DNA of 64,000 nt from Synergistales bacterium (GCA_963666205.1 OY762654.1:1776752-1840751), one strand, 5' to 3'; shown: positions 6,008 to 26,242, numbered from the stretch's first letter. The notes: generated by a model not told the origin, from the sequence alone. A program made the numbers and translations.

Positions 6008-6212
6008 AAGATACAAAACAAACAAGCACCTGCGGGTGTTACGGGCATTGGGTTTAATGAAGGGCCTGATGTTGAAATGGAGGTACTGTGTTATCCCCCA
6101 AAGATACTGAGGAATTGCTTATTGTTCTGAAACAGATGATTGCTACAGGCCACACTGTCCTTGTATACAGATGGATTGATCCTCTAAAAAGTGAACAAGG
6201 GAGGTTCCTGTT

Positions 6213-7427
6213 ATGAAAGACTTTATGTACAGATGTTGTGGATGTGGAAAGAGTTTTCCCGGAACCAGGCTTCACTTTCGCTGCGAAGATTGTGGAGAAC
6301 CCATGGAGGTAGATTATGTCCGCCATGGAAAGATTGCCAAAGATTCTTTTTTGGGAAATACAATATTGGAAAGATTTGCAGATTTTTTCCCCTTTTCCGA
6401 AACCTGTAAAAATATATCAATGAGAGAAGGATTTACGCCACTGGTAGAATCAGAAAAACTGGAAAACGAGTTCGGAGTCAAAAAAGTATATCTTAAAAAT
6501 GAAAGTCAGAATCCAACCTGGTCTTTTAAAGATCGTGGTACTGTTGCTGGATTGAACCATGCTCTTTCTCTGGGATATAAAGCCATAGGAACAGTTTCAA
6601 CCGGTAATATGGCAGCTTCTGTAGCCGCATATGGTTCGAGGGCGGGATTAAAAACATTTATCCTTGTTGATCATAAACTTCCCCCGGAAAAACTGAATCC
6701 CATCGTAGTATATGGAGCAGATGTAATAAAGGTTGAAGGAGATTATGGAAATCTTTATTTTGAGAGTCTCAAAATCGGGAAGGACTTGGGGATATATTTC
6801 ATTAACTCCGATTCGCCCTTCCGGGTAGAAGGATCAAAGACCATAGCTTTTGAAATATATGAACAGATGAAAGGGGATAATCCTGATTTTGTTATAGTTC
6901 CAACCAGTGCAGGAGGCAATATAAGAGGAATAGCTAAAGGTTTTAAAGAGTTGAAGCAATGTGGCCTGATAGATAATATCCCGATTATTATATGTGCACA
7001 GGCTGAAGGTTGTTCCCCCATTGCTTCTGCCTGGGAAAAAGGGGAAAGTATGATTAACAGGGTAAACCATCCTGAAACTATTGCCCATGCCATAGAGAAT
7101 CCATTTCCTCCCAGTGGCAATGAAGTGTTGAGGATGCTGGTTTCTGTAAAGGGGATGTGTGTATCAGTATCAGACAATGAAATTCTTGATGCCCAGAAGA
7201 AACTGGCTCATGAAGGGATCTTTATACAGCCAGCCTCAGCCACCCCCATTGCAGTAATGGCAAAACTCAAGGAAAGGGGTTATTGGAAAGGGAATGAAAA
7301 AGTGGCTTGTGTTCTTACAGGAAGTGGTTTGAAGTTTACAGCCGTGTTCGAAAAATTGGGCTTATCCTCCCAAAATTGTAAAATCAGGGAACTGGGGAAT
7401 GTGATTGCAGAATTAATGGATAAATAG
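6213..7427 (+). CDS. thrC: threonine synthase family PLP enzyme (fold type II) with N-terminal zinc ribbon
   Basis: 404 aa. N-terminal CCGCG...CEDCG ribbon, PLP-lysine motif NPTWSFKDRG and a glycine-rich loop SAGGNIRG. GGGAGG RBS upstream. The exact reaction is not provable from sequence. Confidence 0.7.
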   Translation: MKDFMYRCCGCGKSFPGTRLHFRCEDCGEPMEVDYVRHGKIAKDSFLGNTILERFADFFPFSETCKNISMREGFTPLVESEKLENEFGVKKVYLKNESQNPTWSFKDRGTVAGLNHALSLGYKAIGTVSTGNMAASVAAYGSRAGLKTFILVDHKLPPEKLNPIVVYGADVIKVEGDYGNLYFESLKIGKDLGIYFINSDSPFRVEGSKTIAFEIYEQMKGDNPDFVIVPTSAGGNIRGIAKGFKELKQCGLIDNIPIIICAQAEGCSPIASAWEKGESMINRVNHPETIAHAIENPFPPSGNEVLRMLVSVKGMCVSVSDNEILDAQKKLAHEGIFIQPASATPIAVMAKLKERGYWKGNEKVACVLTGSGLKFTAVFEKLGLSSQNCKIRELGNVIAELMDK

Positions 7428-9527: not shown

Positions 9528-9606
9528 GCTGTGGTAAAATAATCCTGCCTTAATCGAGTTTTCCATCAGGTTGGTTTCATCCTTTTTCTTTGAAGGTGGG
9601 TTTGTT

Positions 9607-12360
9607 ATGACCGGAGACGAAAGAAACAGAATTTCCTCAGAACGGAGTCCCTCCGTGGAAAAACCCGTCCTTGAAAGTGAAAAGGTGCCCTGCTCTTCTG
9701 AAGAGAAAGGTAGCGGCCTCCGTCGGGAGATGCATATACCCCTGGGATTAAGCAGTCTGATATCCTTCCTCATAACCGATATTCAGGGAGAGGAAGCTTC
9801 TATAATGTCAACAAGCAGCGGAGCAGAACGACTTTTCGGTTATGGTCCGTCTGAAATGGCGGGTCAGCTCCTTTCGTCCATTATGGTTCCAGACAGGGTG
9901 TGCCGCCTTCCTGTTATTTTCGGCAAACTATCGGCCACTAAAGAGGGATACAGTTCAGAGACAGTCCTTGCAAAGCGATCGGGAGAACTTTTTCCTGCGC
10001 ATCTTAAGGTCTATCCTGTGCATGATAAAGATGGTAATGTGGTACAGGCCCTTTTTTTTATCACCGACCTTTCCTCCCGTAAAAAACTTGAAAAGGAACT
10101 CTCCAGGAGCGAGGAAAAATTCCGTATTCTCATTGAGAATTCTCTTGATATCATAACCATCCTTGATCACGATGGAACAGTGACCTATCACAGCCCTTCT
10201 GTCAGGGATGTCCTCGGTTATGAAAAGGGTGAACTGCAAAGAGCCAATATTTTTGACAACATACATCCTGAAGATTTCCCTGCGACTATGTCCGCCCTCG
10301 CTGAAGTATCTAAAGATCCAGGTATTCCAAAGGTCCTTGAACATCGTTTCAGAGATAGTTCCGGGGCCTGGAAGATATTTGAGAGCCGGGGTAAGGCTCT
10401 TATATCCGGTTCTGGCCTTGAAGGGATAATTGTAAATTCCAGGGATATTTCCGACAGAAAGGAAGCAGAGAGGGAACTTTCCCGCCGTCTTCATTTTGAG
10501 GAGACCCTTTCGGAAATATCAACAAGATTTGTCCTGACACAATATCTGGATGAAGCGATCAACACTTCCCTTGAACAGCTCGGTCTTTTCAGTTGCGCAA
10601 GTCGTGCCTATATTTTTACAATTGACAGGAAATCCGGAACAATGAGCAATACCCATGAATGGTGTTACAAGGATATAGAGCCCCAGATAGATCATCTCCA
10701 GTTCCTTCCTCTCAATAGCTTTCCATGGTGGATGAAAAGACTTGAAGAAGATGGAGAGATAGTTATTCAGGATGTATCCAGCCTTCCTCCGGAGGCATCT
10801 GCCGAGAAGACTATCCTCCAGGAACAGGGGATAAGATCCATCCTCGTACTTCCCTTTTATTGTGCCAATTCGATCAGGGGTTATGTGGGTTTCGACAATG
10901 TGATCTCCACCTGGGCCTGGGAAAAGAAGGACATAAGACTTCTCAAGGTCTATGCACATATCCTTGGCCAGGCTTTTGAAAAAAATGAAACTTTCCGTTC
11001 CTATCAGTCCAGCCTCCAGTTCAACCTCAGTCTTCTCAACAGTTCTCCAAACCCGATAATGGTTCTTGATGCACAAGGTTCAATAACCTATGTAAATCCT
11101 TCCTTTGGCAGGGTATCAGGCTATACCTTAAAGGAAGTCAGGGGCATGAGAGCCCCTTATCCCTGGTGGCCTGAAGATGACGTGGAGGATTGCCTCCGGG
11201 AACATGAAGCCCTCTTAAGAGGTAATAGTACAGCAGGAGAGAAACGGTTTATATCCAGCAAGGGAGAGACTTTCCGGGTTTACATAAATAGCTCTCTTAT
11301 AAATGGAGAAGAAGGGGAGAACCATTTCCTGGTTAACTGGCTCGATATCACAGAGCGGTATCGGGCAGAGAGGGCTCACAGGGCTTCAGAGGAAAAATAC
11401 AGATCTCTCGTGGAAAACCTGAATGAAATAATTTATTCACTCAACAGGGAAGGACATATCACTTTTATAAGCCCTGTTGTAAAAGCATTGCTTGGATATG
11501 AAACATCGGAGATGGAGGGATGCGCCTTTACTTCCTTTGTTCACGAAGATGACAGTTACGCTGTGGAGGCAAGCCTGAAGGACCGGTGGGCTGGCATTCC
11601 GGAAAAGTATGAGCTCCGCATGATCAGCAATGAAGGTAAAGTACATCACGTGCTGGTTTCGTCAAGACCCCAGTTTGACGGAAATAACGTAGTTGGTGTT
11701 ATCGGCTCCCTCAGCGATATCACAGCCCAGAGGGAAACGGAGATCAAACTGGAGGCAAGTTACAGAAAGCTTGATGAATTGATGGATGGAGCCGCATCTT
11801 CCATAGTGTCTCTTCTGGAGATAAGAGATCCCTATTCAGCCGGACATCAGAGACGGGTATCCATACTCGCTACGGCAATTGCAAAGGAAATGAAGCTTAA
11901 GGAAGAACAGGTGGAAAATGTAAGAATTTCCAGCCTTGTCCACGATATAGGAAAGATCCATATACCAGCTGAGATACTCAGTAAGCCATCAAAGCTGAGA
12001 AAAACGGAATTCGAACTTCTCAAGGCTCATCCCCGCTCGGGTTCTGAGGTCATACATAAATTCGCTTTCCCTGAGATCATCGGAGAAATAGTGCTCCAGC
12101 ATCATGAGAGATTCGACGGTTCGGGTTATCCGGATGGTCTGAAGGGACAGGAAATACTGCTTGAGGCCAGGATCCTTGCCGTGGCAGATGTTGTGGAAGC
12201 TATGGTTTCCCATAGACCCTATCGTCCGGCCCACAGTTTTGATGAAGCCCTGGAGGAGATCTCTTCAAAGAGCGGCATTCATTTCGACCCTGAAGTTGTA
12301 GTTGCCTGTATCAGTGTCTTTTCAAAAAAAGGGTTCTTCGCAGGGTCTTCCAGTATCTGA
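9607..12360 (+). CDS. multidomain sensor, PAS-PAS-GAF-PAS-PAS-HD-GYP (putative c-di-GMP phosphodiesterase)
   Basis: ORF track 9571..12360. The ATG at 9607 lies 7 nt after AAGGTGG. Four PAS-like segments, for example ENSLDIITILDHDGTVTYHSP and NLNEIIYSLNREGHITFISP. A GAF-like segment, then C-terminal HDIGKIHIP and HHERFDGSGYPDGL (HD-GYP). Confidence 0.85.
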   Translation: MTGDERNRISSERSPSVEKPVLESEKVPCSSEEKGSGLRREMHIPLGLSSLISFLITDIQGEEASIMSTSSGAERLFGYGPSEMAGQLLSSIMVPDRVCRLPVIFGKLSATKEGYSSETVLAKRSGELFPAHLKVYPVHDKDGNVVQALFFITDLSSRKKLEKELSRSEEKFRILIENSLDIITILDHDGTVTYHSPSVRDVLGYEKGELQRANIFDNIHPEDFPATMSALAEVSKDPGIPKVLEHRFRDSSGAWKIFESRGKALISGSGLEGIIVNSRDISDRKEAERELSRRLHFEETLSEISTRFVLTQYLDEAINTSLEQLGLFSCASRAYIFTIDRKSGTMSNTHEWCYKDIEPQIDHLQFLPLNSFPWWMKRLEEDGEIVIQDVSSLPPEASAEKTILQEQGIRSILVLPFYCANSIRGYVGFDNVISTWAWEKKDIRLLKVYAHILGQAFEKNETFRSYQSSLQFNLSLLNSSPNPIMVLDAQGSITYVNPSFGRVSGYTLKEVRGMRAPYPWWPEDDVEDCLREHEALLRGNSTAGEKRFISSKGETFRVYINSSLINGEEGENHFLVNWLDITERYRAERAHRASEEKYRSLVENLNEIIYSLNREGHITFISPVVKALLGYETSEMEGCAFTSFVHEDDSYAVEASLKDRWAGIPEKYELRMISNEGKVHHVLVSSRPQFDGNNVVGVIGSLSDITAQRETEIKLEASYRKLDELMDGAASSIVSLLEIRDPYSAGHQRRVSILATAIAKEMKLKEEQVENVRISSLVHDIGKIHIPAEILSKPSKLRKTEFELLKAHPRSGSEVIHKFAFPEIIGEIVLQHHERFDGSGYPDGLKGQEILLEARILAVADVVEAMVSHRPYRPAHSFDEALEEISSKSGIHFDPEVVVACISVFSKKGFFAGSSSI

Positions 12361-12381
12361 GGAACATATCTCATGGGGTCA

Positions 12382-12921
12382 TCACCGCCATCGACCTCTA
12401 CCTCCCGGACCCCGGCCATGACCGCCCTTTCTTCCAGGACCGAAACCTGAACATGGAGGTCCTGCGATGTCATTTTCGGGGAAATTTCTATGGCATTCAT
12501 CGCAGACGGCCGCTATTTCCAGTGTCTGGGGGAGGAAGTGAAATGCCTCTTCCTCAACCCATTTCCTGACCATAGCCTCTTTGCCTGTTTCATCCTCCAT
12601 GTGTATTACCTTGCCGCAGATCCTGCAGTATACGTGAAAGTGCATCTTTTGACCTGGAAGTTCAAAACGGTAAAACCCTTCCTCCAAATTAACCAGGTTC
12701 AGGAGCCCAAGCCTGGATAGAAGGTTTACAGTACGGTAGATGGTGGCGATCCCGATAGTCGGGTCCTCTGCCTGCGCCAATTCCCTGAGATCGTTAACGC
12801 TGCAATGTTTTCCCGAGTTTTCGATGAGGGTCCTTATGATGATTTCCCGCTGACTGGTAAGGCGGAAGCCCCTTTTTTTCAGTTCTTCCCTATATTGGTC
12901 GCTCAGCTTTCCAGGTAACAT
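12382..12921 (-). CDS. fur: Fur family transcriptional repressor with an unusual C-terminal Gly/Arg-rich extension
   Basis: 179 aa. Fur-type winged helix (LTSQREIIIRTLIENSGKHCSVNDL..IATIYRTVNLL) and CRIC...CDEC structural zinc motifs. About 30 extra residues end in AGPPCSGFGPGRKGGHGRGPGGRGRWR. GGAGGA RBS. A near-consensus Fur box lies in its own promoter region. Confidence 0.85.
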   Translation of the reverse strand: MLPGKLSDQYREELKKRGFRLTSQREIIIRTLIENSGKHCSVNDLRELAQAEDPTIGIATIYRTVNLLSRLGLLNLVNLEEGFYRFELPGQKMHFHVYCRICGKVIHMEDETGKEAMVRKWVEEEAFHFLPQTLEIAAVCDECHRNFPENDIAGPPCSGFGPGRKGGHGRGPGGRGRWR

Positions 12922-12970
12922 CTTGTTCCTCCAGAAGGTTATGTTCTCTTTATGAATTTTACATTGACCC

Positions 12971-13000
12971 TTGACAATATAACATATACAGGTCTAGAAT
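12971..13000 (+). promoter_or_regulatory. sigma70-type promoter of the DUF5320 / MinD-Fer4 operon
   Basis: TTGACA (12971-12976), an 18-nt spacer, then TAGAAT (12995-13000). It overlaps the divergent fur promoter face to face. Confidence 0.55.
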
Positions 13001-13005
13001 GCTAA
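12976..13005 (-). promoter_or_regulatory. candidate promoter of the fur-family gene
   Basis: Minus strand reads TTAGCA (13005-13000), an 18-nt spacer, then TGT-TATATT (extended -10; TATATT at 12981-12976). The -35 element directly abuts the Fur box at 13006-13020. Confidence 0.45.
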
Positions 13006-13020
13006 TGATAATCATTATCA
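13006..13020. promoter_or_regulatory. Fur box (operator site 1)
   Basis: TGATAATCATTATCA is a perfect 7-1-7 palindrome. The 19-mer at 13001-13019, GCTAATGATAATCATTATC, matches the classical Fur consensus GATAATGATAATCATTATC at 18 of 19 positions. The box starts 6 nt after the -10 hexamer. Confidence 0.75.
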
Positions 13021-13234
13021 CTAATTGAATCTCCTGATATGCGATACATGAGTAATGATCCTGTATTTCCGACTCTGGTTTTGCTGACACTATTTTTGTA
13101 AGTATTGTACTGGAGTTTCCAGAGAAACGGGTTTCTTCTGGCCATTCTGAATTTACTTATCCTGATCATGTATTGCTATAAGAGGACAATACATCTTTCC
13201 AAAGGGAGAGATGAACTTCAAGGAGGCGATACAA

Positions 13235-13510
13235 ATGCCGAGATTTAACGGAAGAGGGCCAAGAGGTATGGGTCCCGGAACAGGATGGGGCCTTGGTCCC
13301 TGTGGAGCAGGCAGAGCCTGGGGCCGTGGAGGCGGATATGGGTATGGCTGGAGAGTGCCTATGGCAGACAGTGGTTATTATCCTCCATATGCTGCGCCTG
13401 TACAGCCTGCACCCCAGGATGAAAAGGTCTTTCTTCAGGATCAGCTGGACTATCTTGAATCTGAAGTCAGGCGGATACGGGAAAGAATGGATGATCTCGA
13501 TAAGGCTTAA
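13235..13510 (+). CDS. DUF5320-like protein (Gly/Arg-rich N-terminus plus C-terminal coiled coil)
   Basis: ORF track 13211..13510. The ATG at 13235 lies 8 nt after AAGGAGG. Starts MPRFNGRGPRGMGPGTGWGLGPCGAGRAWGRGGGYGYGWR and ends with the helical LQDQLDYLESEVRRIRERMDDLDKA. This is the DUF5320 architecture as I recall it. Confidence 0.7.
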   Translation: MPRFNGRGPRGMGPGTGWGLGPCGAGRAWGRGGGYGYGWRVPMADSGYYPPYAAPVQPAPQDEKVFLQDQLDYLESEVRRIRERMDDLDKA

Positions 13511-13548
13511 CCCTGATCTTTTCTTCTTACCCCATGTTAACTTTCTTT

Positions 13549-13584
13549 AAGAGAGGGGAGTTTTCTCTCCTCTCTTGATTTTGT
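13549..13584 (+). terminator. hairpin / partial terminator between DUF5320 and the first ATPase gene
   Basis: AAGAGAGGGGAG (13549-13560), loop TTTT, CTCTCCTCTCTT (13565-13576). This gives 12 bp including one G-U pair. T-rich GATTTTGTCTGTTT follows. Confidence 0.5.
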
Positions 13585-13629
13585 CTGTTTCTCCGATACA
13601 ATCAGGGAATGCCAATTGCCAACTGAACA

Positions 13630-13644
13630 GAATAATCAATATCA
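13630..13644. promoter_or_regulatory. Fur-box-like operator site 2
   Basis: GAATAATCAATATCA is 13/15 identical to site 3 (15888-15902). It lies 44 nt upstream of the first ATPase gene. A possible weak promoter is TTGCCA (13616-13621) with TATCAA (13640-13645). Confidence 0.4.
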
Positions 13645-13687
13645 ATAAACCATTATTTTAGATGGAACAAGAAAATCAACGGAGGAC

Positions 13688-14542
13688 GTGATCTCGGAAA
13701 TGTTTCGAATAGCAGTTGCAAGCGGCAAGGGAGGTACCGGAAAAACGTGTGTTGCCTCATCACTTGCATTGACGGCAGGTCAGGCTGTTGCCGTTGATGT
13801 GGATGTGGAAGAACCCAACCTTGCTATTCTTATGGGAACAGAAATGAGACATCATCTTGATGTTACAGTACCTCTTCCCGTAATAAATGAAGATAAATGT
13901 ACAAAATGTGGTAAATGTGCCGAGGCCTGCCGTTTTGGAGCCCTGGCCATTTTTCCTGACAAATATCCTATCCTTAACAGTTCTCTCTGTAATGGTTGCG
14001 GTACATGTTCTATTGTCTGTCCATATTCTGCCATAACTGAAACGAAAAGAGTAGTTGGAGAATTGAATTACGGGGAAGAAGGATCTATCAGGATACTTGA
14101 AGGGCGTCTTAATGTAGGTGTCTACAATGCCATACCTATCATCGAGAAGACTCTTAATGAAGCTGAAAAATGGGACACTACCCATGTGATAGACTGTTCT
14201 CCCGGCACATCCTGTCCCATGGTGGCAGCGGTGGGGCGGGCCGATTATGTGGTTTTAGTGACAGAACCGACTCCCTTTGGCCTGGCGGATCTTGCTCTTG
14301 CCCTTACGGTGGTCAGGGATCTTGGCATACCGGCAGGAGTAGTGGTCAACAGGGCAGATCTTTCCGGAGGGGATCTGGGTCCTCTATGTGACAAGTTCGG
14401 AGTGGATGTTATTGCCAGTCTGCCCTTTTCAAGACAGGTCGCGAAAGCCTATGCCAGTGGTATTTCCCCAATCAGGGTCGATGCAAACTGGCGGGAGGCT
14501 ATGAAAAAAGTATTAAACAGGGCAGAGGAGGCACTTCAATGA
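13688..14542 (+). CDS. MinD/ParA-type P-loop ATPase with inserted 2x[4Fe-4S] ferredoxin domain
   Basis: 284 aa. Deviant Walker A ASGKGGTGKT, then CTKCGKCAEACRFGAL and CNGCGTCSIVCPYSAI cluster motifs. GTG at 13688 or ATG at 13700 are possible starts. Confidence 0.85.
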   Translation: MISEMFRIAVASGKGGTGKTCVASSLALTAGQAVAVDVDVEEPNLAILMGTEMRHHLDVTVPLPVINEDKCTKCGKCAEACRFGALAIFPDKYPILNSSLCNGCGTCSIVCPYSAITETKRVVGELNYGEEGSIRILEGRLNVGVYNAIPIIEKTLNEAEKWDTTHVIDCSPGTSCPMVAAVGRADYVVLVTEPTPFGLADLALALTVVRDLGIPAGVVVNRADLSGGDLGPLCDKFGVDVIASLPFSRQVAKAYASGISPIRVDANWREAMKKVLNRAEEALQ

Positions 14543-15414
14543 GACCTCGTGAAGTTGTTATTGTAAGCGGCAAGGGGGGTACGGGAAAGACATCCCTTTC
14601 TTCGGTTCTCTGTGCAAAGGCAGCCGGAAAAGCCGTTTTTGCAGATACTGACGTTGACGCGCCGGATCTCTGGATACTTCTTAAGCCCGAAGAAAAGAAG
14701 CGTTTTGTTTTCCACGGTCTTGAAAAGGCAAAGGTTGATCAGGGAAAATGTATAGGCTGCGGAAAATGTGCCCGAACCTGCCGATTCAACGCCATAGAAC
14801 TCCAGGATGGAAAGGCTTTTGTTAACACCACTTTCTGTGAGGGCTGTGCGGCCTGCACTTATGTTTGCCCCACGAAATGTATTTCCCTTGAGCAGATAAC
14901 ACAGGGGCATTACTTTTACGGTGAGACAGAGCATGGTCCCATGTGGCATGCTCTCCTTGATCCGGGTGGAGAGAATTCTGGAATGCTTGTTTCACTCATC
15001 AGAAGATCTTCAGCTGAAACCGCAGAGGATATGGGGCTTCCCCTGATAGTGATTGATGGACCTCCCGGAGTTGCCTGTCCGGCTATATCGACCCTCACAG
15101 GAGCTGACCTGGCGGTTGTTGTAACGGAGCCGACCCTTTCGGGCTGGCACGATCTCAAAAGAGTCGGAGAACTCTGTCGGCAGTTGAGAGTTCCCATGAC
15201 CGTAGTGATAAACAAGTACGATCTTGCCCCCGATGAAGCCGAAAATATTTCCCGGAAATGCCAGGATAGCAATTGGCCTGTTCTGGGTATGATACCCTTC
15301 CGCAGGGAAGTTGTAGATGCTGTTTCACAGGCCCGGATCCCGGTGGAGGAACTATCTCCGGAGATCAACGTGATCTGGAGGGCAATAAAAACTCATACAG
15401 GTTTAGATATCTGA
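14539..15414 (+). CDS. MinD/ParA-type P-loop ATPase with inserted 2x[4Fe-4S] ferredoxin domain (paralogue)
   Basis: 291 aa. SGKGGTGKT, CIGCGKCARTCRFNAI and CEGCAACTYVCPTKCI. Its start overlaps the previous stop (ATGA at 14539-14542), which implies translational coupling. Confidence 0.85.
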   Translation: MRPREVVIVSGKGGTGKTSLSSVLCAKAAGKAVFADTDVDAPDLWILLKPEEKKRFVFHGLEKAKVDQGKCIGCGKCARTCRFNAIELQDGKAFVNTTFCEGCAACTYVCPTKCISLEQITQGHYFYGETEHGPMWHALLDPGGENSGMLVSLIRRSSAETAEDMGLPLIVIDGPPGVACPAISTLTGADLAVVVTEPTLSGWHDLKRVGELCRQLRVPMTVVINKYDLAPDEAENISRKCQDSNWPVLGMIPFRREVVDAVSQARIPVEELSPEINVIWRAIKTHTGLDI

Positions 15415-15443
15415 CAAATACTTAAAAAGGAGTTGAGGTAATT

Positions 15444-15776
15444 ATGATAGCAGTATCATCCGATGGTAATTCCCTTTCAAGCATGATAGCCTCCCGTTTT
15501 GCAAGGGCGGCCTTCTTCCTCATTTTTGACGATGAGGGCAAGCTGCTGGAGGCCATGCCTAACGATACTTCAGATGTGGCTCATGGCGCTGGAGGCAGGG
15601 CTGTTCAACTGCTTTCAGCTAAAAAGGTGACATCTGTGGTGGGTCCCATGTTCGGCCCCAATGCCTGTGTAGCCCTCAAGGCTGCGGGCATAAAGGCCTT
15701 TGAGGCCAGGGATATGACTGTTGAAGATGCAGTCAAAAAGGTTCTCCAGGGCGAAATGAAGGAAATGGTTTTTTAG
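15444..15776 (+). CDS. NifB/NifX/NifY-fold protein (dinitrogenase FeMo-cofactor-biosynthesis domain, 'orange protein'-like)
   Basis: 110 aa. IAVSSDG...SRFARAAFFLIFD...GAGGRAVQLL..KVTSVV...GPNACVALKAAGIKAF pattern typical of the NifX/NifB C-terminal family. Confidence 0.75.
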   Translation: MIAVSSDGNSLSSMIASRFARAAFFLIFDDEGKLLEAMPNDTSDVAHGAGGRAVQLLSAKKVTSVVGPMFGPNACVALKAAGIKAFEARDMTVEDAVKKVLQGEMKEMVF

Positions 15777-15814
15777 AATAATCCATCATCTCCCATTATA
15801 TAAATAATCTTCAT

Positions 15815-15842
15815 GGCCCCACTACGGTGGGGTCTTTTTTTT
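15815..15842 (+). terminator. rho-independent terminator after the NifX-fold gene
   Basis: CCCCAC (15817-15822), loop TACG, GTGGGG (15827-15832), followed by a run of T ending at 15842. Confidence 0.7.
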
Positions 15843-15853
15843 GGGGAAAGTAC

Positions 15854-15882
15854 TTGCTATATACCCCTTAGGAGCATATAAT
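15854..15882 (+). promoter_or_regulatory. sigma70-type promoter of the twin ferredoxin genes
   Basis: TTGCTA (15854-15859), a 17-nt spacer, then TATAAT (15877-15882). Confidence 0.6.
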
Positions 15883-15887
15883 GCTAT

Positions 15888-15902
15888 TGATAATCAATAT
15901 CA
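15888..15902. promoter_or_regulatory. Fur-box operator site 3
   Basis: TGATAATCAATATCA is 14/15 identical to site 1. It starts 6 nt after the -10 hexamer, the same spacing as site 1. It is embedded in TTGATAATCAATATCAATATTCAATATC. Confidence 0.65.
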
Positions 15903-15954
15903 ATATTCAATATCGCTGTTATAGATTTCCTGTAGCAGGTCAGGAGGATTAGAA

Positions 15955-16200
15955 ATGCCATGGGTGAGAGATGATCTTTGTGTTAATTGTGGTAAGTGTA
16001 TAGAGTCCTGTTCTTCGGGAGCCATATCCATGAAGGGTGGAAAAGCCTTGGTATCTCAGGAAAAATGTATTAAATGTGGGGCATGTATGCCTGTTTGTCC
16101 TGAGGGTGCTATAAGGCCGAATTCAGAAAATCCGGCCTTGGCTGGTAGATCTGGAGCGGGATATGGTTTTGGCCAGGGAATGAGCCGTTTGAGAAAGTAG
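15955..16200 (+). CDS. 2x[4Fe-4S] ferredoxin with Gly-rich C-terminal tail
   Basis: 81 aa. CVNCGKCIESC and CIKCGACMPVCP motifs. Tail AGRSGAGYGFGQGMSRLRK. AGGAGG RBS. Confidence 0.8.
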   Translation: MPWVRDDLCVNCGKCIESCSSGAISMKGGKALVSQEKCIKCGACMPVCPEGAIRPNSENPALAGRSGAGYGFGQGMSRLRK

Positions 16201-16211
16201 AGAGGTCTATT

Positions 16212-16565
16212 ATGCCCTGGATATCCCCTGAAAAATGCGTTGGTTGTGGAATATGCGTACATAAGTGTCCTGTCGGAGCGATCTCCATCAGGTATAGTGC
16301 CGCAGAACTGGATATGGACCAGTGTATTCGCTGTGGAATATGTCATGACGTATGTCCCAGAATGGCAATAAGACATGATAGTGAGCGGATTCCACGGGAG
16401 ATTCAGTCTAATCTTGAAAAAGCGGAAAGATCAATGGCGGAATGTGTAAGGTTGCTGGGAAATCCCAATGAAAGAATTAAGTGTCATGAAAGGCTGGTAA
16501 AACATTTCAACAAGGAAAAGATAGTTATCGAAGAAACCCTTAAAGAACTTGAGAGAATCAGGTAG
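16212..16565 (+). CDS. 2x[4Fe-4S] ferredoxin-domain protein with helical C-terminal extension
   Basis: 117 aa. CVGCGICVHKCP and CIRCGICHDVCP motifs. It starts MPW like its neighbour. The C-terminal 55 aa or so are charged and helical. Confidence 0.8.
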   Translation: MPWISPEKCVGCGICVHKCPVGAISIRYSAAELDMDQCIRCGICHDVCPRMAIRHDSERIPREIQSNLEKAERSMAECVRLLGNPNERIKCHERLVKHFNKEKIVIEETLKELERIR

Positions 16566-16716: not shown

Positions 16717-17670
16717 TTGAACAAGGAGCGTATCAGGAATTTCCCCATTTCCTTTTTTGCGGTTTCCATGGGGATCACCGGAGTTGTTCTTATGGTCGAA
16801 AAGATGGAACATCTGATTCTCATTCCCCACATTTTTTCGAGTTTCCTTTTATTGTTTTCCCTTGCCCTTTTCGTAATCATCAGTGGTTTGTATTTTACAA
16901 AGGTCTTTTCCTATCCCCGTGTTGTGGCAGAAGAACTTCTGCATCCCATAAAAATGCACTTTCTTCCCACTTTTTCGGTGAGCCTTCTTCTTCTGTCAGT
17001 AGCTTTTCTTGGAGAATATCCCGTCCTTTCGAAATCATTCTGGATACCAGGGACGGTTTTACATTTGATCATTACCCTTTACACATTATCCAGCTGGGTA
17101 CAGCGCCAGGATTTTGAAATTCAGCATGCCAATCCATCCTGGTTCATACCCATCCTTGGAAATCTGATAATTCCGGTTGCGGGAGTGATCCATGCCCCTC
17201 TTGAATTGAACTGGTTTTTCTTTAGTGTGGGTTTATTTTTCTGGGTACTCCTTTTTGCTGTATTGCTCAACAGGATCATATTTCATCATCCCATTCCAGA
17301 AAAACTTATCCCAACCTTCTTCATTCTCATGGCTCCGCCTGCAGTTGCTTTTATCTCCTATGTCAAGCTTACCGGAAGGATAGATCTCTTTGCCCAATCT
17401 CTCTATTCCCTTGCTCTTTTCATGTTTCTCTTTGTGATCAGCCAGTTGAAACTTTTTGCAGGGATCAGGTTTTATCTGTCATGGTGGGCCTATTCCTTTC
17501 CCCTCGCAGCCCTGGGACTTGCCTCTTCCCTTATTTTTTCGAAAACGGAGAGGGTCTATTACCAGTATGGAGCCATATTTTTCTTTATCATCCTTCTGGG
17601 GGTGGCCGGCTTTCTCGTATTCCTCACAATAGGACAGATTAAGGCAGGCAGGATCTGCGTTGAAGAATAA
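16717..17670 (+). CDS. TehA/TDT (tellurite-resistance / dicarboxylate, SLAC1-like) family anion channel/transporter
   Basis: 317 aa, TTG start. About 10 hydrophobic helices. N-terminal IRNFPISFFAVSMGITG is typical of the TDT family. Confidence 0.75.
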   Translation: MNKERIRNFPISFFAVSMGITGVVLMVEKMEHLILIPHIFSSFLLLFSLALFVIISGLYFTKVFSYPRVVAEELLHPIKMHFLPTFSVSLLLLSVAFLGEYPVLSKSFWIPGTVLHLIITLYTLSSWVQRQDFEIQHANPSWFIPILGNLIIPVAGVIHAPLELNWFFFSVGLFFWVLLFAVLLNRIIFHHPIPEKLIPTFFILMAPPAVAFISYVKLTGRIDLFAQSLYSLALFMFLFVISQLKLFAGIRFYLSWWAYSFPLAALGLASSLIFSKTERVYYQYGAIFFFIILLGVAGFLVFLTIGQIKAGRICVEE

Positions 17671-17860: not shown

Positions 17861-18421
17861 TTACAGTATGTTTTTCCCAGCTTCTTTAAGGTCTGCGATG
17901 AGTACTTCATCTTCAGATGCTTCATTTTTAGTGTACAGGTCAGGGTAGCAGAATTCTCCGGTTATCTCCATTTCCAGGAGCTTGCACGATTCCCTGAAAG
18001 AAAATAGAAGTCCGTCAAAGCAGCTCTCATGACTATCTCCTGCACTTGCAACAAGAATGGCCTTTTTCCCTTTAAGTGCCGAAAGAGCTTCATCAGAAAC
18101 GAAGGGTACCAGTCTGTCAAGAACCGGTTTTATCTGAGAGCTCCATGAGTACCAGTACAAGGGTGTAGCAAAGATAACAGTATCAGCTTCTGCGAGGGAT
18201 TCATAGATATTATCCATCTCATCGTCTATTATGCAGGGACGTCCTCCGCTCCAGCATTTCCGGCAGTCAAGGCATCCATCGATGGTCATGTCTCCCAGGC
18301 GGAACCTGTCTATCTCAACATCTCCATCGAACTCTGATACCAGAGCTTCGGCCATGGTTTCACTGTTCCCGCCCTTTCGGGGACTTCCAAGAAGCAAGCA
18401 GATCCTTTTCATAGTTTTCAT
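17861..18421 (-). CDS. flavodoxin-like fold FMN reductase / iron-sulfur flavoprotein family
   Basis: 186 aa. ICLLLGSPRKGGNSETMAEAL FMN-binding N-terminus and a compact Cys motif CLDCRKCWSGGRPC. Confidence 0.8.
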   Translation of the reverse strand: MKTMKRICLLLGSPRKGGNSETMAEALVSEFDGDVEIDRFRLGDMTIDGCLDCRKCWSGGRPCIIDDEMDNIYESLAEADTVIFATPLYWYSWSSQIKPVLDRLVPFVSDEALSALKGKKAILVASAGDSHESCFDGLLFSFRESCKLLEMEITGEFCYPDLYTKNEASEDEVLIADLKEAGKNIL

Positions 18422-18825
18422 CTCCTTTTTTCTTTTTTCTCTATCCTCAGAAAAACGCCTTTCCTGTAACTGTTGTTCTCAAGATCTTTCCTGATATTCT
18501 CTGTTGCTTCGATAAGCCTGGCTATGTCTACCTGTCTGAAACAGGGTCCGTATTGTTGAAGAAGTCCTGTTCCTGAATCAAGCAGGGTCTTCGCACCTCT
18601 TGTATTATCTCTGCTGAGATGATACATCGCAACAGCTAAATGGAGCAATCCCTGGTAAAAGGATCGTATTTGGGAATCTCCGAACCCCCACAGGTGTTCC
18701 ATAACATCATGACAACGGTAAAATTCCCCTTTGTTGAAAAGATCTATTCCGTAATCGAGGATTTCAGTTTCTTTCCACAAGACCAGATCATCAATGGGAG
18801 TATTTCCATTTATTCTTTCCAGCAT
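18418..18825 (-). CDS. DUF309 domain protein
   Basis: ORF track 18418..18906. FNKGEFYRCHDVMEHLW...FYQGLLHLAVAMYHL matches the DUF309 pattern. The first 27 aa of the ORF are translated AT-rich promoter-like DNA, so the start is moved to the ATG at 18825. It overlaps the downstream gene by 4 nt. Confidence 0.6.
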   Translation of the reverse strand: MLERINGNTPIDDLVLWKETEILDYGIDLFNKGEFYRCHDVMEHLWGFGDSQIRSFYQGLLHLAVAMYHLSRDNTRGAKTLLDSGTGLLQQYGPCFRQVDIARLIEATENIRKDLENNSYRKGVFLRIEKKEKRR

Positions 18826-18885
18826 GGGTTTCACCGTCCCTTTGTAACAGTTTAGGAAAAATATTTGAAATAGTAAAACTTTTTC

Positions 18886-18914
18886 TTGACTTATTGAAGA
18901 ATACATAATACATT
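18886..18914 (+). promoter_or_regulatory. candidate promoter of the orphan gene at 18952
   Basis: TTGACT (18886-18891), a 17-nt spacer, then TACATT (18909-18914). Confidence 0.35.
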
Positions 18915-22971: not shown

Positions 22972-24126
22972 CTATTTTCTCCAGAGGTCAGTGTTTTCCA
23001 GGTCTGCGGCAACGTCCTTGAGAAGAGATGGTATCTGGAGGTGCTGGGGGCATACCTCCATACATTTTCCGCAGTTTACACATAGAGAGGCGTGGGCTTT
23101 TTTGCCCATTATTCCGCCGAGCCAGAAATAATACTGACGTTTTGGGTCTTCCTGCCCGAGAAGATGATAGCGGTTATAGAACTCAAAACAGGTGGGAATA
23201 TCCACTCCTGCCGGACAGGGCATGCAGTAACGGCATCCAGTGCAGCCCACTTTTGTAAGGCGGCGGTATTCATCTCCAGCCCTCTTGACCATGTCAAGTT
23301 CTGTTTCTGTCATGGATTCAGGTTTAGCCTCGCTGGCTATCCTGATGTTTTCCTCGATATGTTCTTCTTCATTCATGCCTGACAGGACAACTTTCACCTC
23401 TGGATGGTTCCAGAGCCATCTGAGTCCCCACTCTGCCGGTGTTCTCTTTATCTCTGATTCATCCCATATTTCCGCTACTGAAGGAGGCACGATCCTGGTC
23501 AGACTCCCACCCCGGAGAGGTTCCATTATGATAACTCCAAGTCCCTTTGAAGCAGCATATCTGAGTCCTTCCGTTCCAGCCTGGAAATCTTTATCCAGGT
23601 AGTTATACTGGATCTGGCAGAAGTCCCAGTCAAAGGAATCAACTATTTCTTTGAATGTTCCCAGGTCATCATGAAAGGAGAACCCTGCATTTCTTACCTT
23701 TCCATTTTTTTTAGCTTCAACAAGAAAATCCAGTACTCCCAGATCCCTTATGTTTTCCCAGCTTTGTCTTGAAAGGGCATGAAGCAGGTAATAATCTATC
23801 CATTCTGTCTGAAGTCTTTCGAGCTGAAGGTCAAGCATTCTCTCAATATCATCCGGTTCTTTCATAAGCCAGCAGGGCAGCTTGGTGGCAAGCTTTACCT
23901 TCTCCCTGTAACCGTCTTTAAGAGCCTTTCCTACGAAGGGTTCGCCATCTCCATTGTGGTATGGATAAGCTGTATCAATATAGTTGATTCCCCTATCTAT
24001 CGCTGATTGGATATGCCGGGTTGCCCGTTCTTCATCGATGGAGCCATCCTTCTGGGCAAGTCTCATACATCCGAAACCCAGAATAGAAAGCTCATCACCG
24101 TTCTTTGGCATTTTTCTGTAAAGCAT
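22972..24126 (-). CDS. aldo/keto reductase with C-terminal 4Fe-4S ferredoxin domain
   Basis: 384 aa. AKR motifs (GINYIDTAYPY, KLATKL) and C-terminal CTGCRYCMPCPAGVDIP and CVNCGKCMEVCPQHLQIP. Confidence 0.85.
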   Translation of the reverse strand: MLYRKMPKNGDELSILGFGCMRLAQKDGSIDEERATRHIQSAIDRGINYIDTAYPYHNGDGEPFVGKALKDGYREKVKLATKLPCWLMKEPDDIERMLDLQLERLQTEWIDYYLLHALSRQSWENIRDLGVLDFLVEAKKNGKVRNAGFSFHDDLGTFKEIVDSFDWDFCQIQYNYLDKDFQAGTEGLRYAASKGLGVIIMEPLRGGSLTRIVPPSVAEIWDESEIKRTPAEWGLRWLWNHPEVKVVLSGMNEEEHIEENIRIASEAKPESMTETELDMVKRAGDEYRRLTKVGCTGCRYCMPCPAGVDIPTCFEFYNRYHLLGQEDPKRQYYFWLGGIMGKKAHASLCVNCGKCMEVCPQHLQIPSLLKDVAADLENTDLWRK

Positions 24127-24385: not shown

Positions 24386-24829
24386 ATGAAAAAAACTGAA
24401 CTCCTCTCTGCTGTTGCAGCCTGCGGGATCGATTGTATCAACTGCCCCATGCACGAAAAAAACATAACTGAAGATCTGAAAAACAGAGTTGCCGCCATGA
24501 TGGGGAAGGACCCCGATGAAATGATCTGCCATGGCTGCCGCTCGGATAAGCGGGCGGCCATATGTCCTGCCGACTGTTCCACCCTTACCTGCTCAAGGGA
24601 AAAGGGTGTTGACTTCTGTTTTGAATGTCCAGACTTCCCCTGCGAAAAGCTCAACCCGGCTTCAGACCGGGCTGAAAGACTTCCCCATAATCTTAAGGTA
24701 TATAATTCCTGCCGAATGAAAAAAATGGGTCCTGAAAAATGGCTGGAGGAAGATGCCGGACCAACTACTGCCAGGTATTACAAGGGAAAGATGGTCATCG
24801 GAAGGGGCCCCGTACTGGAAGGAGAGTAA
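24386..24829 (+). CDS. DUF3795 domain (Cys-rich) protein
   Basis: 147 aa. CGIDCINCP...CHGCRS...CSTLTCSREKGVDFCFECPDFPCEKL pattern. AAGGAGG RBS. Confidence 0.7.
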   Translation: MKKTELLSAVAACGIDCINCPMHEKNITEDLKNRVAAMMGKDPDEMICHGCRSDKRAAICPADCSTLTCSREKGVDFCFECPDFPCEKLNPASDRAERLPHNLKVYNSCRMKKMGPEKWLEEDAGPTTARYYKGKMVIGRGPVLEGE

Positions 24830-25016: not shown

Positions 25017-26222
25017 ATGGATACCAGGCTCCAGAAACTTCTTTCCCATGTCTCTACAGAAGAACTTGCAGAGTTGACAAGCCGTTTTATCAGGATCCCC
25101 AGCCACTGGGATGTGCCGGACAAGGAAGTCGAAATGGTAAAGGCTGTGGTTGCATTCCTTGATTCGGAAAATATACCCTATGAACTCGATCATGTCGAAG
25201 GAGAAAGGTACAATATAATCGCCTGTCTCAAGGGGACTGGCGGAGGCAGCAGCCTTTCCCTTGCCGGACATCTCGATACGGTACCGCCCTATAATATGAA
25301 GGTTGACCCCTTTGGAGGAAAGATCGAGGGGGACCGTGTATGGGGCCGTGGAACGGTAGACATGAAAGGTGCAGATGCATGTATGCTCCTGACATTGGCT
25401 GCATTCAAAAGGTCAGGAATAGAGCTTGCAGGGGACCTCTATTTTGCAGGTGTTCTTGCTGAAGAGACCAACAGCGATGGAGCCGAGTCCCTTATCGAAT
25501 CAGGATTCAGAACAGATGGCGTAATAATCGGAGAACCGTCAGGTATCCAGTATTCCATAGGACACCGTGGCCTGGAATGGATCGAAGTGGAATTCTTCGG
25601 AAAAACTGCACATGGCGGAGTTCCGGAAGAAGGAGTCAATGCCATCCTGCAAGCCACCAGATTTATTACAAGGGTCCAGGAAAAGATAGTACCCATGCTC
25701 AAAGAGCGTTACCATCCCCATATGGGCCCCTCAGTAATGAACTTCGGTAAAATTGAGGGAGGTCTTCAACCGAGTACAGTAGCAGGAAGTTGTACCCTCC
25801 AGCTTGATCGGCGATACCTGCCCTGGGAATCGGTAACCAGTCTTATGAAGGAATACCAGGATGTAATTGATGAACTATCTGCGGAAGATCCCACATTCAA
25901 AGCCGAACTCCGTCTTCTCGATATAGGAATTATGAACAAATATGAACATGTGGCCCTTGAAACTTCCCCCGACGAACCCATCGTAGATGCCATAAAATAT
26001 GCACTCTCCGAAGTTCACGGAAAGCCGGCAGAACTCTCCACCAAGCATGGCTGGACCGATGCCGCTCTTTTCAGACATTACGGAAATATGCCCACAGTAG
26101 TCTATGGTCCTGGAGACCTAGTCAGGGCCCACGGACCGGAGGAATATATAACTTTCAAAGAACTTGAGGATGGTTTCAGGACATATCTTCTTGCGTCCAT
26201 GAAGTTTTGTGGAGTCTGCTGA
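25017..26222 (+). CDS. M20 family metallohydrolase (ArgE/DapE/acylase-type deacylase)
   Basis: 401 aa. LAGHLDTVP, GRGTVDMKG and LAEETNSDG metal-ligand motifs. Confidence 0.85.
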   Translation: MDTRLQKLLSHVSTEELAELTSRFIRIPSHWDVPDKEVEMVKAVVAFLDSENIPYELDHVEGERYNIIACLKGTGGGSSLSLAGHLDTVPPYNMKVDPFGGKIEGDRVWGRGTVDMKGADACMLLTLAAFKRSGIELAGDLYFAGVLAEETNSDGAESLIESGFRTDGVIIGEPSGIQYSIGHRGLEWIEVEFFGKTAHGGVPEEGVNAILQATRFITRVQEKIVPMLKERYHPHMGPSVMNFGKIEGGLQPSTVAGSCTLQLDRRYLPWESVTSLMKEYQDVIDELSAEDPTFKAELRLLDIGIMNKYEHVALETSPDEPIVDAIKYALSEVHGKPAELSTKHGWTDAALFRHYGNMPTVVYGPGDLVRAHGPEEYITFKELEDGFRTYLLASMKFCGVC

Positions 26223-26242
26223 AAAAAGGGACCATTATTCCA

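Follow-up and report, generated by a model that had tools for sequence, protein, structure and literature searches.

A form of the anaerobe-specific ORP-type gene cluster with predicted Fur operators on its promoters in Acetomicrobium (Synergistota)

Gene content and layout of the locus

We analyzed a stretch of 64,000 nucleotides (nt) from a Synergistales bacterium (GCA_963666205.1, OY762654.1:1776752-1840751), hereafter the window, in which the genes between positions 12,382 and 16,565 had been predicted to form a Fur-family-gated module of the ORP ("orange protein") type. Judged by its predicted genes and regulatory sites, the locus represents the anaerobe-specific ORP-type cluster as it occurs in Acetomicrobium (Synergistota), with predicted Fur operators on its promoters. 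All seven open reading frames of the original prediction were found where it had placed them, with the fur gene divergent from a plus-strand array, and Pfam searches bore out the domains it had named (Fur, DUF5320, an ATPase pair with double CxxCxxCxxxC motifs, a NifX fold and ferredoxins beginning with MPW). The genes are as follows.

12382-12921, minus strand: fur-family regulator gene, 179 amino acids (aa), FUR domain PF01475 (E 4e-25)
13235-13510, plus strand: DUF5320 gene, 91 aa, PF17253 (65.5 bits against a cut-off of 27)
13688-14542, plus strand: ATPase-1 gene (Orp3-type), CbiA/ParA P-loop with a 2x CxxCxxCxxxC ferredoxin insert
14539-15414, plus strand: ATPase-2 gene (Orp4-type), same architecture as ATPase-1
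15444-15776, plus strand: NifX-fold gene, 110 aa, Nitro_FeMo-Co PF02579 (E 7e-16)
15955-16200, plus strand: ferredoxin 1 gene, 81 aa, 2x[4Fe-4S], N-terminus MPW
16212-16565, plus strand: ferredoxin 2 gene, 117 aa, 2x[4Fe-4S] followed by a C-terminal extension of ~60 aa, N-terminus MPW

The ATGA overlap at 14539-14542, from which translational coupling of the ATPases had been proposed, is real, and the terminator 3′ of the NifX gene and the second promoter ahead of the ferredoxins are also present. Fur boxes at two of three promoters, a hairpin between the DUF5320 and ATPase-1 genes and a cationic tail on the Fur protein are additional to that earlier reading. For DUF5320, a start at 13235 is favored over 13211 by the family N-terminus, MPRF, and by an AAGGAGG ribosome-binding site. 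Gene callers in close relatives begin ATPase-1 at ATG 13700 (280 aa) and not at GTG 13688. Scans for tRNAs and Rfam families across the 64 kb returned no feature.

The closest named genome is a metagenome-assembled genome (MAG) of Acetomicrobium hydrogeniformans, in which DUF5320 is 95% identical, and a contig of GCA_016841025.1 shows full synteny with the module; the window thus derives from an Acetomicrobium-like member of the Synergistota. We surveyed DUF5320 in 83 non-redundant loci from many anaerobic phyla and found that the gene linkage repeats across genomes; individual loci are cited below by number. To call the module an undescribed system, as had been done, is too strong, given that the cluster type has been known since 2011 and is partly characterized (PMC6345978, PMC8359166). 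Three aspects appear to be new: in the searchable literature we found no report of Fur-controlled orp-type genes, of a role for DUF5320 or of the regulator tails described below.

Predicted promoters and Fur operators

The signals predicted in and around the cluster are listed in order of position.

12971-13000, plus strand: promoter P1 (DUF5320), -35 TTGACA (12971-12976), 18-nt spacer, -10 TAGAAT (12995-13000)
12976-13005, minus strand: putative fur promoter, -35 TTAGCA (13005-13000), 18-nt spacer, extended -10 TG-TATATT (12981-12976), from a consensus scan only
13000-13020: Fur operator 1, perfect 7-1-7 box TGATAATCATTATCA (13006-13020) plus a box with 2 mismatches (13000-13014)
13547-13578, plus strand: hairpin between DUF5320 and ATPase-1, GC-rich, 14 pairs, then a T-rich tract
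13630-13644: weak Fur-box-like site before ATPase-1 (P2), GAATAATCAATATCA, 3 mismatches
15815-15842, plus strand: strong intrinsic terminator, hairpin GGCCCCAC-TACG-GTGGGGTC (15815-15834), then T8
15854-15882, plus strand: promoter P3 (ferredoxin pair), TTGCTA, 17-nt spacer, TATAAT, 10 of 12 positions
15882-15902: Fur operator 3, TGATAATCAATATCA with 1 mismatch (15888-15902) plus a box with 3 mismatches (15882-15896)

P1 is the best sigma70-like match of the region, with 11 of 12 positions. The two boxes of operator 1 overlap into a classical 19-mer whose first base is the last base of the P1 -10 element, and operator 3 is placed in the same manner, the -10 being followed by GCTAWTGATAATCAWTATCA; the 26-nt cassettes of P1 and P3 are near-identical (TAGAATGCTAATGATAATCATTATCA vs. 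TATAATGCTATTGATAATCAATATCA). Operator 1 also spans the -35 of the putative divergent fur promoter; the overlap of this promoter with both P1 and operator 1 implies autoregulation of fur. The weak site at 13630-13644 has the 13-mer ATAATCAATATCA in common with operator 3. When the window was scanned with the 7-1-7 consensus TGATAATNATTATCA, allowing up to 3 mismatches, we obtained 15 sites compared to 5.5 +/- 2.3 in shuffled sequences, and the two best were both in this cluster.

The operators are conserved. The P1 promoter/operator block is invariant in the window, L001 and L007 while its flanks have diverged, and in L088, where Fur is 63% identical and the ferredoxins are absent, the -35/-10/Fur-box block is almost invariant in diverged surroundings. 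The ~170-nt leader of DUF5320 (~13021-13234) is absent from L088 and is therefore probably non-essential. Operator 3 is kept in L002 and L007. At greater distance, fur is likewise divergent in A. mobile, whose ATPase is 46% identical, and the fur-DUF5320 spacer there has a perfect box 19 bp before DUF5320. L003 (54% identical) lacks an adjacent fur but has a 1-mismatch box 22 bp ahead of DUF5320. Outside Synergistota, two MAGs have fur immediately 5′ of DUF5320, one from Syntrophobacterales (L029, where a box also precedes fur) and one from Omnitrophota (L059), and Fur boxes precede the module in Calditrichaceae (L053, in tandem), Spirochaetaceae (L060) and one Paceibacteria locus. Across 1.0 Mb of non-redundant loci, 5 of the 6 boxes with at most 1 mismatch fell within 300 bp upstream of core genes, a region comprising 7.4% of the bases (P = 1e-5), as did 10 of the 21 boxes with at most 2 mismatches (P = 8e-7), although the true significance is lower than these values because the null model ignores the AT-richness of intergenic DNA.

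We found no credible sigma54 -24/-12 element upstream of the module and no gene for an enhancer-binding protein near it. Fur control, predicted from the operators, is well supported, and gating by a Fur-family protein in place of sigma54, as originally proposed, holds for these predicted sites. As for the hairpin at 13547-13578, L088 has one at the same place that is made of different sequence; it may act as a partial terminator or as an mRNA-stabilizing element that raises DUF5320 expression over that of the ATPases.

The ATPase pair

ATPase-1 is a P-loop protein of the MinD/SIMIBI type with a deviant Walker A motif, SGKGGTGK(T), and an inserted 2x[4Fe-4S] ferredoxin domain. The eight ferredoxin cysteines (C71/74/77/81 and C101/104/107/111) are invariant, as are Asp37/Asp39 and Cys176, which lies seven residues past the Walker B residue Asp169. 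We take this spacing to equal that of Asp125-Cys132 in switch II of NifH, a lead only. In a confident AlphaFold2 model with a predicted local distance difference test score (pLDDT) of 93.7, the nearest solved folds were archaeal and bacterial MinD, ApbC, the ATPase-type HypB, FleN/FlhG, NifH and BchL. These matches span the P-loop core only (TM ~0.58), and the ferredoxin-insert architecture occurred in no solved structure among them. The family is very large, with about 8,000 candidates at E <= 1e-10, and is annotated by JGI as "MinD superfamily P-loop ATPase".

These proteins are not ordinary Mrp/ApbC iron-sulfur (Fe-S) carriers, so the outcome that the original prediction had named as refuting it did not arise. 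They match the NCBIfam MrpORP model NF041136 over their first ~50 residues only, scoring 44 and 37 bits where the cut-off is 450, whereas true Mrp proteins encoded in related loci reach 190-550 bits. The ApbC model was absent among the 25 best NCBIfam matches listed for each ATPase, and we identified no Mrp-type CxxC motif in either. In loci with a complete pair, the ATPase-1 type came first and the ATPase-2 type second in 32 of 32 cases, and the 4-nt overlap was the commonest arrangement of the pair in other loci. An Mrp above the MrpORP equivalog cut-off (505-549 bits) occurs in three of the fetched loci, L050 (Desulfobacca), L082 and L013. L050 and L082 belong to the 32 pair loci; L013 has one ATPase gene within the fetched stretch. 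As the constant order includes loci with MrpORP, we consider the two ATPases of the window to be orthologues of the Orp3/Orp4-type proteins that genuine orp clusters encode. Together with the match of the NifX-fold protein to the D. gigas orange protein, this upholds the earlier designation of the locus as an ORP-type module.

DUF5320, the NifX-fold protein and their likeness to IssA

The NifX-fold protein matched TM1816 (1RDU, 9e-19), the D. gigas orange protein (2WFB, 3.4e-12, residues 2-105) and MTH1175 (1EO1, 1e-11) among PDB entries. It is tail-less, has an isoelectric point (pI) of 5.8 and no conserved Cys, and is thus of the orange-protein/TM1816/MTH1175 type. MTH1175 also served as the model of the IssA domain in the IssA paper. 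The window protein carries the NifX-like domain IPR003731 that is found in the iron-sulfur storage protein IssA, but not the cationic Gly-rich tail of IssA in cis (pI >= 9 and >= 20% Gly over the last 40 residues).

Such a segment is present in DUF5320, a family essentially absent from the searchable literature in spite of its 5,339 cluster representatives at E <= 1e-3 among 1.84 billion proteins. The N-terminal motif, MPRFNGTGPxGxGPGTGWGLGPCGAG, is almost invariant and has one invariant Cys; it is followed by a variable Arg/Gly/Trp-rich stretch, a Pro-rich linker (41-60) and a C-terminal helix or coiled coil (60-90). AlphaFold2 predicted residues 1-51 as disordered (pLDDT below 50) and residues 60-90 as a single helix (above 90). 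Residues 1-40, with a pI of 11.7, are 40% Gly, 15% Arg and 15% aromatic and include a single Cys; a stretch of 30% Pro comes next. In IssA, a Pro-rich stretch precedes Gly/Arg/aromatic residues with a sole Cys, a tail proposed to wrap anionic thioferrate, which IssA stores; given reductant, it donates [4Fe-4S] to ferredoxin (PMC5524996). By analogy, the NifX-fold protein and DUF5320 would form a split IssA-like unit.

The survey ties DUF5320 to the ORP module. An ATPase pair lies within 6 kb in 33 of the 83 loci, a NifX-type gene in 38 and an Mrp in 21, and each of the three loci that encode a bona fide MrpORP also has DUF5320. In seven lineages (L032, L043, L054, L058, L064, L071, L086), which come from Dehalococcoidia and other Chloroflexota, Bipolaricaulota and Syntrophobacterales, a single chain holds Nitro_FeMo-Co followed by DUF5320, with both domains above the Pfam gathering thresholds; the layout is a NifX domain, GRGMGRGMGRG repeats and a coiled coil. 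L037 and L039 have a NifX domain with a Gly/Arg tail only. DUF5320 had been regarded, along with the ferredoxins, as an extension of the module. This view does not hold for DUF5320, which is present in genuine orp clusters and fused to NifX, and which, by gene content, is a widespread and probably ancestral module member rather than an add-on. It does hold for the ferredoxin pair, which is restricted to the closest relatives and absent from L088 and A. mobile, and which, judged by the loci compared, is the only lineage-specific addition to the module. We also considered that Orp5 of the Desulfovibrio cluster (DVU2105/Dde_3197) might be a DUF5320 protein, and rejected this because Orp5 is described as NifX-type with several Cys, and DUF5320 has one or two.

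Some variants of the family were seen along the way. L043 (1784-2155), like L054, L063 and L080, encodes a protein of ~123 aa that is rich in Gly/Arg at its N-terminus (GLRGRNRGGFGRGLGYRFRG) and in Pro/Tyr in its middle, ends in a coiled coil and has one Cys. Pfam gives no match for it, and it resembles a divergent DUF5320 lacking MPxF(N/D)GTGP. Tandem DUF5320 genes occur in L082 (7103-7396 and 7431-7787), L032, L070 and L071. In L082, one of the two consists almost entirely of GRGWGRGWGRG repeats and its neighbor has no coiled coil.

Fur, DUF134 and their cationic tails

The core of the Fur protein is canonical, with a structural CxxC...CxxC site and an HxH motif (C98/C101/C139/C142 and H93/H95 invariant). 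Its best NCBIfam match is Bacillus-type Fur; however, it scores below all NCBIfam equivalog cut-offs, so that the profiles do not assign it to Fur, PerR or Zur. Residues ~144-179 (window ~12385-12492) form a C-terminal cationic tail of ~30 residues with a pI of 11.7, 31% Gly, 17% Arg, one Cys, one His and a terminal RWR; PCSGFGPGRKGGHGRGPGGRGRWR, RRRCRRGHCGRIKQ and RRRYCGRRRGCFRHDDL are examples from Synergistota. The tail is kept throughout the Synergistota Fur clade down to 45% identity and is absent in Fur proteins farther away. In Thermovirgaceae-like contigs the tailed Fur does not adjoin the module. The tail is therefore a property of the clade, and we discarded the idea that it marks module adjacency.

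We also asked if the Fur tail might be homologous to the N-terminal region of DUF5320. The alignment scored 8.8 bits compared to 3.5 +/- 2.3 in shuffles (59 of 2000 reached it; 23 of 2000 for A. mobile), a marginal result, and because similarity in residue order goes only marginally beyond composition we take the likeness as compositional and rejected homology. Apparent N-terminal extensions of Fur in L029 and L059 align with the normal Fur N-terminal helix, and hence are not extensions.

In the Thermovirgaceae-like contigs L087 (7605-7988) and L089 (2362-2754), an unannotated, secreted-looking protein of ~128 aa with a signal-peptide-like N-terminus is encoded 3′ of the tailed fur, followed by glgB. 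The glgB of these contigs is found ~7 kb upstream of DUF5320 in L003.

The commonest neighbor of DUF5320 is DUF134 (PF02001, predicted to bind DNA), which lies within 3 kb in 56 of the 83 loci, in most cases as the next gene and in the same orientation. For Fur, the count within 3 kb is 6 of the 83, and in only one of these is DUF134 present as well (Fisher P = 0.013). By this pattern, Fur stands in for DUF134 at our locus, and together with OrpR of Desulfovibrio (PMC8359166) three unrelated regulator types serve one module. Many DUF134 proteins end in tails very similar to that of Fur (GRGGRCHRGG, RGCQGRGCRRHRHG, RHRRGWRGGF, SRGRGGRCHRGGRNR), in Chloroflexota, Clostridia, Bipolaricaulota and others. 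These tails correlate with the presence of the ATPase/NifX module in the locus (13 of 19 vs. 7 of 31, odds ratio 7.4, P = 0.0025), and only ~1% of ordinary proteins from those loci fit the same tail definition.

In 38 loci, mainly from the Candidate Phyla Radiation (CPR, Patescibacteria) and DPANN, a DUF5320-DUF134 pair occurs without an ATPase or NifX gene, and the system may have its smallest conserved unit in these two genes. The CPR/DPANN pair-only loci comprise L008, L011, L016-L022, L036, L040, L042, L048, L056, L073, L078, L083, L085 and others; their DUF134 is short (~91 aa) and tail-less, and no ATPase or NifX gene lies within the fetched flanks.

Comparison with known systems

The closest described system is the ORP complex of Desulfovibrio vulgaris Hildenborough (Orp3, Orp4, Orp5, Orp8 and Orp9/MrpORP, with the regulator OrpR). 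Both loci have coupled MinD-like ATPases with two [4Fe-4S] motifs each, a NifX-fold relative of the orange protein, a restriction to anaerobes and a dedicated, adjacent and divergent regulator. They differ in that the 64 kb of the window hold no Mrp/MrpORP and no gene for a small, Cys-bearing [2Fe-2S] protein of the NifX type such as Orp5, and in that sigma54, OrpR and integration host factor control the D. vulgaris genes while the window has sigma70-type promoters with predicted Fur operators. The window further adds a ferredoxin pair under predicted Fur control. DUF5320 is not among the five complex members of PMC6345978, yet it occurs in genuine deltaproteobacterial orp clusters as well as in the window. 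Since the ATPase pair and the orange-protein relative are shared and Mrp, Orp5 and sigma54/OrpR control are not, we regard the locus as a variant of the ORP cluster and not as a copy of that of D. vulgaris. In vitro, MrpORP transfers Fe-S clusters to Orp3, Orp4 and Orp8 (PMC6345978), and OrpR senses via an Fe-S cluster (PMC8359166).

IssA (PF2025 of Pyrococcus furiosus) shares with the window the NifX-like IPR003731 domain and a cationic segment that is disordered, made up of Gly, Arg and aromatic residues with one Cys, and next to a Pro-rich stretch. In the window, however, this segment is a separate gene, with a highly conserved N-terminal motif and a coiled coil that go unmentioned in the published account of IssA. 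Moreover, IssA nanoparticles are homomeric while the unit of the window is accompanied by two Fe-S ATPases, and IssA is induced by iron plus sulfide, the opposite of the Fur repression predicted here.

In E. coli, Fur represses suf, and Fe-S biogenesis is de-repressed under iron scarcity. The window resembles sufABCDSE and classical Fur regulons in having a 7-1-7/19-bp Fur operator over the -10/+1 region of sigma70-type promoters and in the predicted autoregulation of fur, but its proteins are unrelated to Suf and its Fur carries the 30-residue cationic Cys/His/Trp tail. The metallocenter ATPases of the SIMIBI/MinD class (Mrp/ApbC/Nbp35, CooC, HypB, NifH/BchL) have a deviant Walker A with the signature lysine and the same predicted fold as the ATPases of the window, from which they differ by the ferredoxin domain inserted after switch I.

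Proposed function and alternatives

We favor, with moderate confidence, the view that the locus encodes a Fur-repressed, ATP- and electron-driven module for binding and delivering iron-sulfur units that is induced when Fe(II) is scarce. Because the operators abut the -10 elements of the DUF5320 and ferredoxin promoters, holo-Fur should shut transcription off at high Fe(II) and permit it at low Fe(II). Non-covalent binding of anionic iron-sulfide species or of cluster precursors would then fall to the tail-less NifX-fold protein together with DUF5320. Given that Orp3 and Orp4 co-purify, the two ATPases with their deviant Walker A motifs may pair into a heterodimer that depends on ATP; their ferredoxin inserts would supply low-potential electrons, received in turn from the two co-regulated ferredoxins. 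ATP and electrons together would drive the assembly or reductive mobilization of iron-sulfur units, which would be passed to apo-proteins. In this way, the module would serve as a route of Fe-S salvage and delivery under Fe(II) shortage, with a regulatory logic analogous to that of the Fur-repressed suf genes of E. coli. Elsewhere, the O. alaskensis G20 orp genes Dde_3197-3199 co-vary with feoA and flavodoxin (PMC10533852), and IssA homologues of M. voltae rise together with FeoB and DtxR when the cells sense Fe(II) limitation (PMC8516115).

Several points weigh against this proposal. Repression by holo-Fur is inferred only from where the operators lie, and the enrichment of boxes upstream of core genes is overstated by its null model, as noted above. 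The Fur-box-like site at 13630-13644 is kept in L001 and L007 with one change and is not conserved in L088, for which reason we downgraded it and consider its status uncertain. It would be counter-intuitive to induce seven Fe-S-rich proteins, with about 8 clusters per ATPase pair and 4 in the ferredoxins, at iron shortage, when flavodoxin usually replaces ferredoxins. The window lacks Mrp, the sole ORP component with a demonstrated cluster-transfer activity, and the similarity of DUF5320 to the IssA tail is one of composition. IssA itself is induced by iron and sulfide (PMC5524996), opposite to classical Fur logic, and the ORP phenotype of D. vulgaris is tied to cell morphology and division and not to iron.

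A bolder elaboration, which we think unlikely but worth stating, is that DUF5320 is a trans-acting equivalent of the IssA tail and that the tailed Fur and DUF134 proteins sense iron-sulfide or Fe-S status directly, instead of or besides free Fe(II). The disordered, cationic, single-Cys peptide of DUF5320, held on its coiled coil, would capture anionic iron-sulfide for the NifX-fold partner, and Fur (in Synergistota) and DUF134 would have acquired their Arg/Gly/Cys/His/Trp tails independently. If true, this would be a previously unrecognized mode of sensing iron-sulfur homeostasis in sulfidic anaerobes and a way round the problem met in M. voltae, whose Fe(II) sensors have been suggested to be blind to FeS(aq).

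Alternatively, the cluster may be an IssA-type system for iron-sulfur storage, switched on when iron and sulfide are abundant, in which Fur would depart from its classical logic, its tail binding Fe-S species or a DUF5320/NifX complex and thereby releasing or inactivating the repressor as Fe-S builds up. The architecture of NifX plus cationic tail is that of the Fe- and sulfide-induced IssA (PMC5524996), OrpR is likewise Fe-S-sensing (PMC8359166), and both the conservation of a Gly/Arg-rich one-Cys tail across the Synergistota Fur clade and the very similar Arg/Gly/Cys/His/Trp tails of module-associated DUF134 regulators would fit. Storage with tail-mediated Fe-S sensing would also resolve the paradox of inducing Fe-S proteins at iron shortage, though this is speculative. 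However, the canonical box and its position over -10/+1 indicate ordinary repression by holo-Fur, tailed Fur proteins away from the module in Thermovirgaceae-like contigs suggest that the tail may have a general role, the order-level similarity between tail and DUF5320 is marginal (P ~0.01-0.03), and expression in G20 and M. voltae groups these genes with iron-limitation genes. We therefore judge a storage function to be rather improbable.

We hold a similarly low opinion of the possibility that DUF5320 is chiefly a regulatory partner, a co-sensor or adaptor of the adjacent DUF134 or Fur, with the ATPase and NifX genes as one regulated target. Its tightest linkage is indeed to DUF134 (56 of 83 loci, 38 loci being without ATPase/NifX), Fur and DUF134 are nearly mutually exclusive beside it (P 0.013), and in the window it comes first after the Fur operator in a hairpin-bounded transcription unit of its own. 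Against this, the DUF5320-NifX fusions of seven lineages favor a physical role with the cluster-binding protein, and we saw no fusion of DUF5320 to Fur or DUF134. The regulatory role is in any case compatible with a cluster-binding one, as the two are not exclusive.

A role of the MinD-like ATPases in cell division or in positioning at the pole, which has been put forward for D. vulgaris, with the metal clusters as mere cofactors or redox sensors, seems very unlikely to us. The closest solved folds are MinD proteins, and in D. vulgaris loss of OrpR leads to morphological defects and MrpORP is polar (PMC8359166, PMC6345978). Nevertheless, the MinD fold is common to the metallocenter-assembly ATPases ApbC, HypB, NifH and BchL, no division genes are linked to the module in the window or in the 83 loci, and the recurrent neighbors belong to Fe-S assembly or are metal proteins (NifU_N, Mrp, radical SAM, DUF364, CGGC). 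The regulator at this locus is a predicted iron sensor, and the predicted membership of the cluster in the Fur regulon, which we see in Synergistota and here and there in other phyla, speaks for iron supply and not for cell division.

There is a comparably slim chance that the module handles heterometal sulfide clusters (Mo/W/Cu-S) for cofactor supply or detoxification and that the Fur-family protein senses a metal other than iron. The D. gigas orange protein is described as binding [S2MoS2CuS2MoS2] (PMC6345978), and the orp genes of G20 responded strongly in copper-surface experiments (PMC10533852). Precursors of FeMo-co are carried by NifX-family proteins. The operator, however, follows the iron-Fur consensus and not the Zur or PerR variants, and the neighborhood contains no transport or cofactor genes for Mo, W or Cu. 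Box specificity of this kind separates Fur, Zur and PerR in B. subtilis, and the Mo-Cu cluster of the orange protein is widely regarded as possibly adventitious. Lastly, we consider it extremely unlikely that the Fur boxes serve only fur autoregulation and adjoin the module by chance, since, although operator 1 lies in the shared divergent region and overlaps the putative fur promoter, it abuts the -10 of the promoter directed at DUF5320, an independent and near-identical operator lies 2.9 kb away at the ferredoxin promoter, L003 has a box before DUF5320 without an adjacent fur, and other phyla, too, have boxes ahead of the module.

Few gene sets specific to anaerobes are as widespread as the ORP cluster, and the link of DUF5320 to the NifX fold, by fusion and by an IssA-tail-like chemistry, joins the fields of ORP and IssA. 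The similar cationic Cys tails on two unrelated regulator families that go with the module suggest a candidate Fe-S-sensing peptide. If correct, our proposal would offer an account of the way in which anaerobes living in sulfide deal with iron, and sense it, when it occurs as FeS and not as free Fe(II). The NifX-DUF5320 fusion, the swap of DUF134 for Fur and the tails common to both regulators make the long-standing question of what the ORP cluster does experimentally approachable.

Neighboring genes

Genes that recur near DUF5320 loci include NifU_N, Mrp, radical SAM, DUF364 and CGGC. A "NifX2" family is present in 24 other loci; in the 64-kb window we found no Mrp homologue and no second NifX-type protein bearing Cys. 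A. mobile and L003 each have an MrpORP-like gene that consists of the P-loop part only. A CGGC-domain protein (PF08821) adjoins DUF5320 in 7 of the 83 loci. Such a gene was noted in L005 (the A. mobile locus, at 6130-6654), L013, L026, L031, L035, L053, L057 and L077. In A. mobile, the CGGC gene overlaps the 3′ end of fur to give a fur-CGGC operon, and the Desulfovibrionaceae/Desulfonatronum loci have DUF5320-CGGC without the ATPases.

Upstream of the module, a gene for a 929-aa protein with four PAS domains, GAF and HD-GYP (HD_5) at 9571-12360 on the plus strand converges on fur and ends 22 bp from its 3′ end. This adjacency is kept in L001, and L088 has a PAS/HD protein ~6 kb away. An HD-domain gene is reportedly a predicted member of Desulfovibrio Fur regulons. 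Downstream, a gene for a SLAC1/TehA-type anion channel (16717-17670, plus strand) begins 150 bp after ferredoxin 2, and our scan found no terminator between the two, so that it may be co-transcribed with the ferredoxins; it is kept downstream in L001 and L002, but not in L088. Genes for an FMN_red/flavodoxin-like reductase and a DUF309 protein adjoin the module at 17861-18906 (minus strand) and in L001 at 12135-13755. In L088, the FMN_red gene lies directly 3′ of the NifX gene on the opposite strand, and L001 carries an OsmC gene in addition to those of the window.

Farther away, a Fur-box-like site with 2 mismatches, TGATATCTATTATCA (27733-27747), lies ~120 bp upstream of the gene for a 432-aa SDH_alpha-only protein (27868-29166), which follows a gene for a single-chain L-serine dehydratase (26207-27622). 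The SDH_alpha-only protein is of a type that we assume to be cysteine-desulfidase-like (YhaM/CdsB family); should the site be genuine, the module would share its regulation with an Fe-S enzyme that releases sulfide. Small Cys-rich, putatively redox-active proteins of the DUF3795 and C_GCAxxG_C_C families are encoded at 24386-24829 and 29244-29777, and an aldo-keto reductase fused to a 4Fe-4S dicluster domain at 22972-24126. Within 15 kb, the surroundings of the module are rich in small Fe-S and redox proteins.

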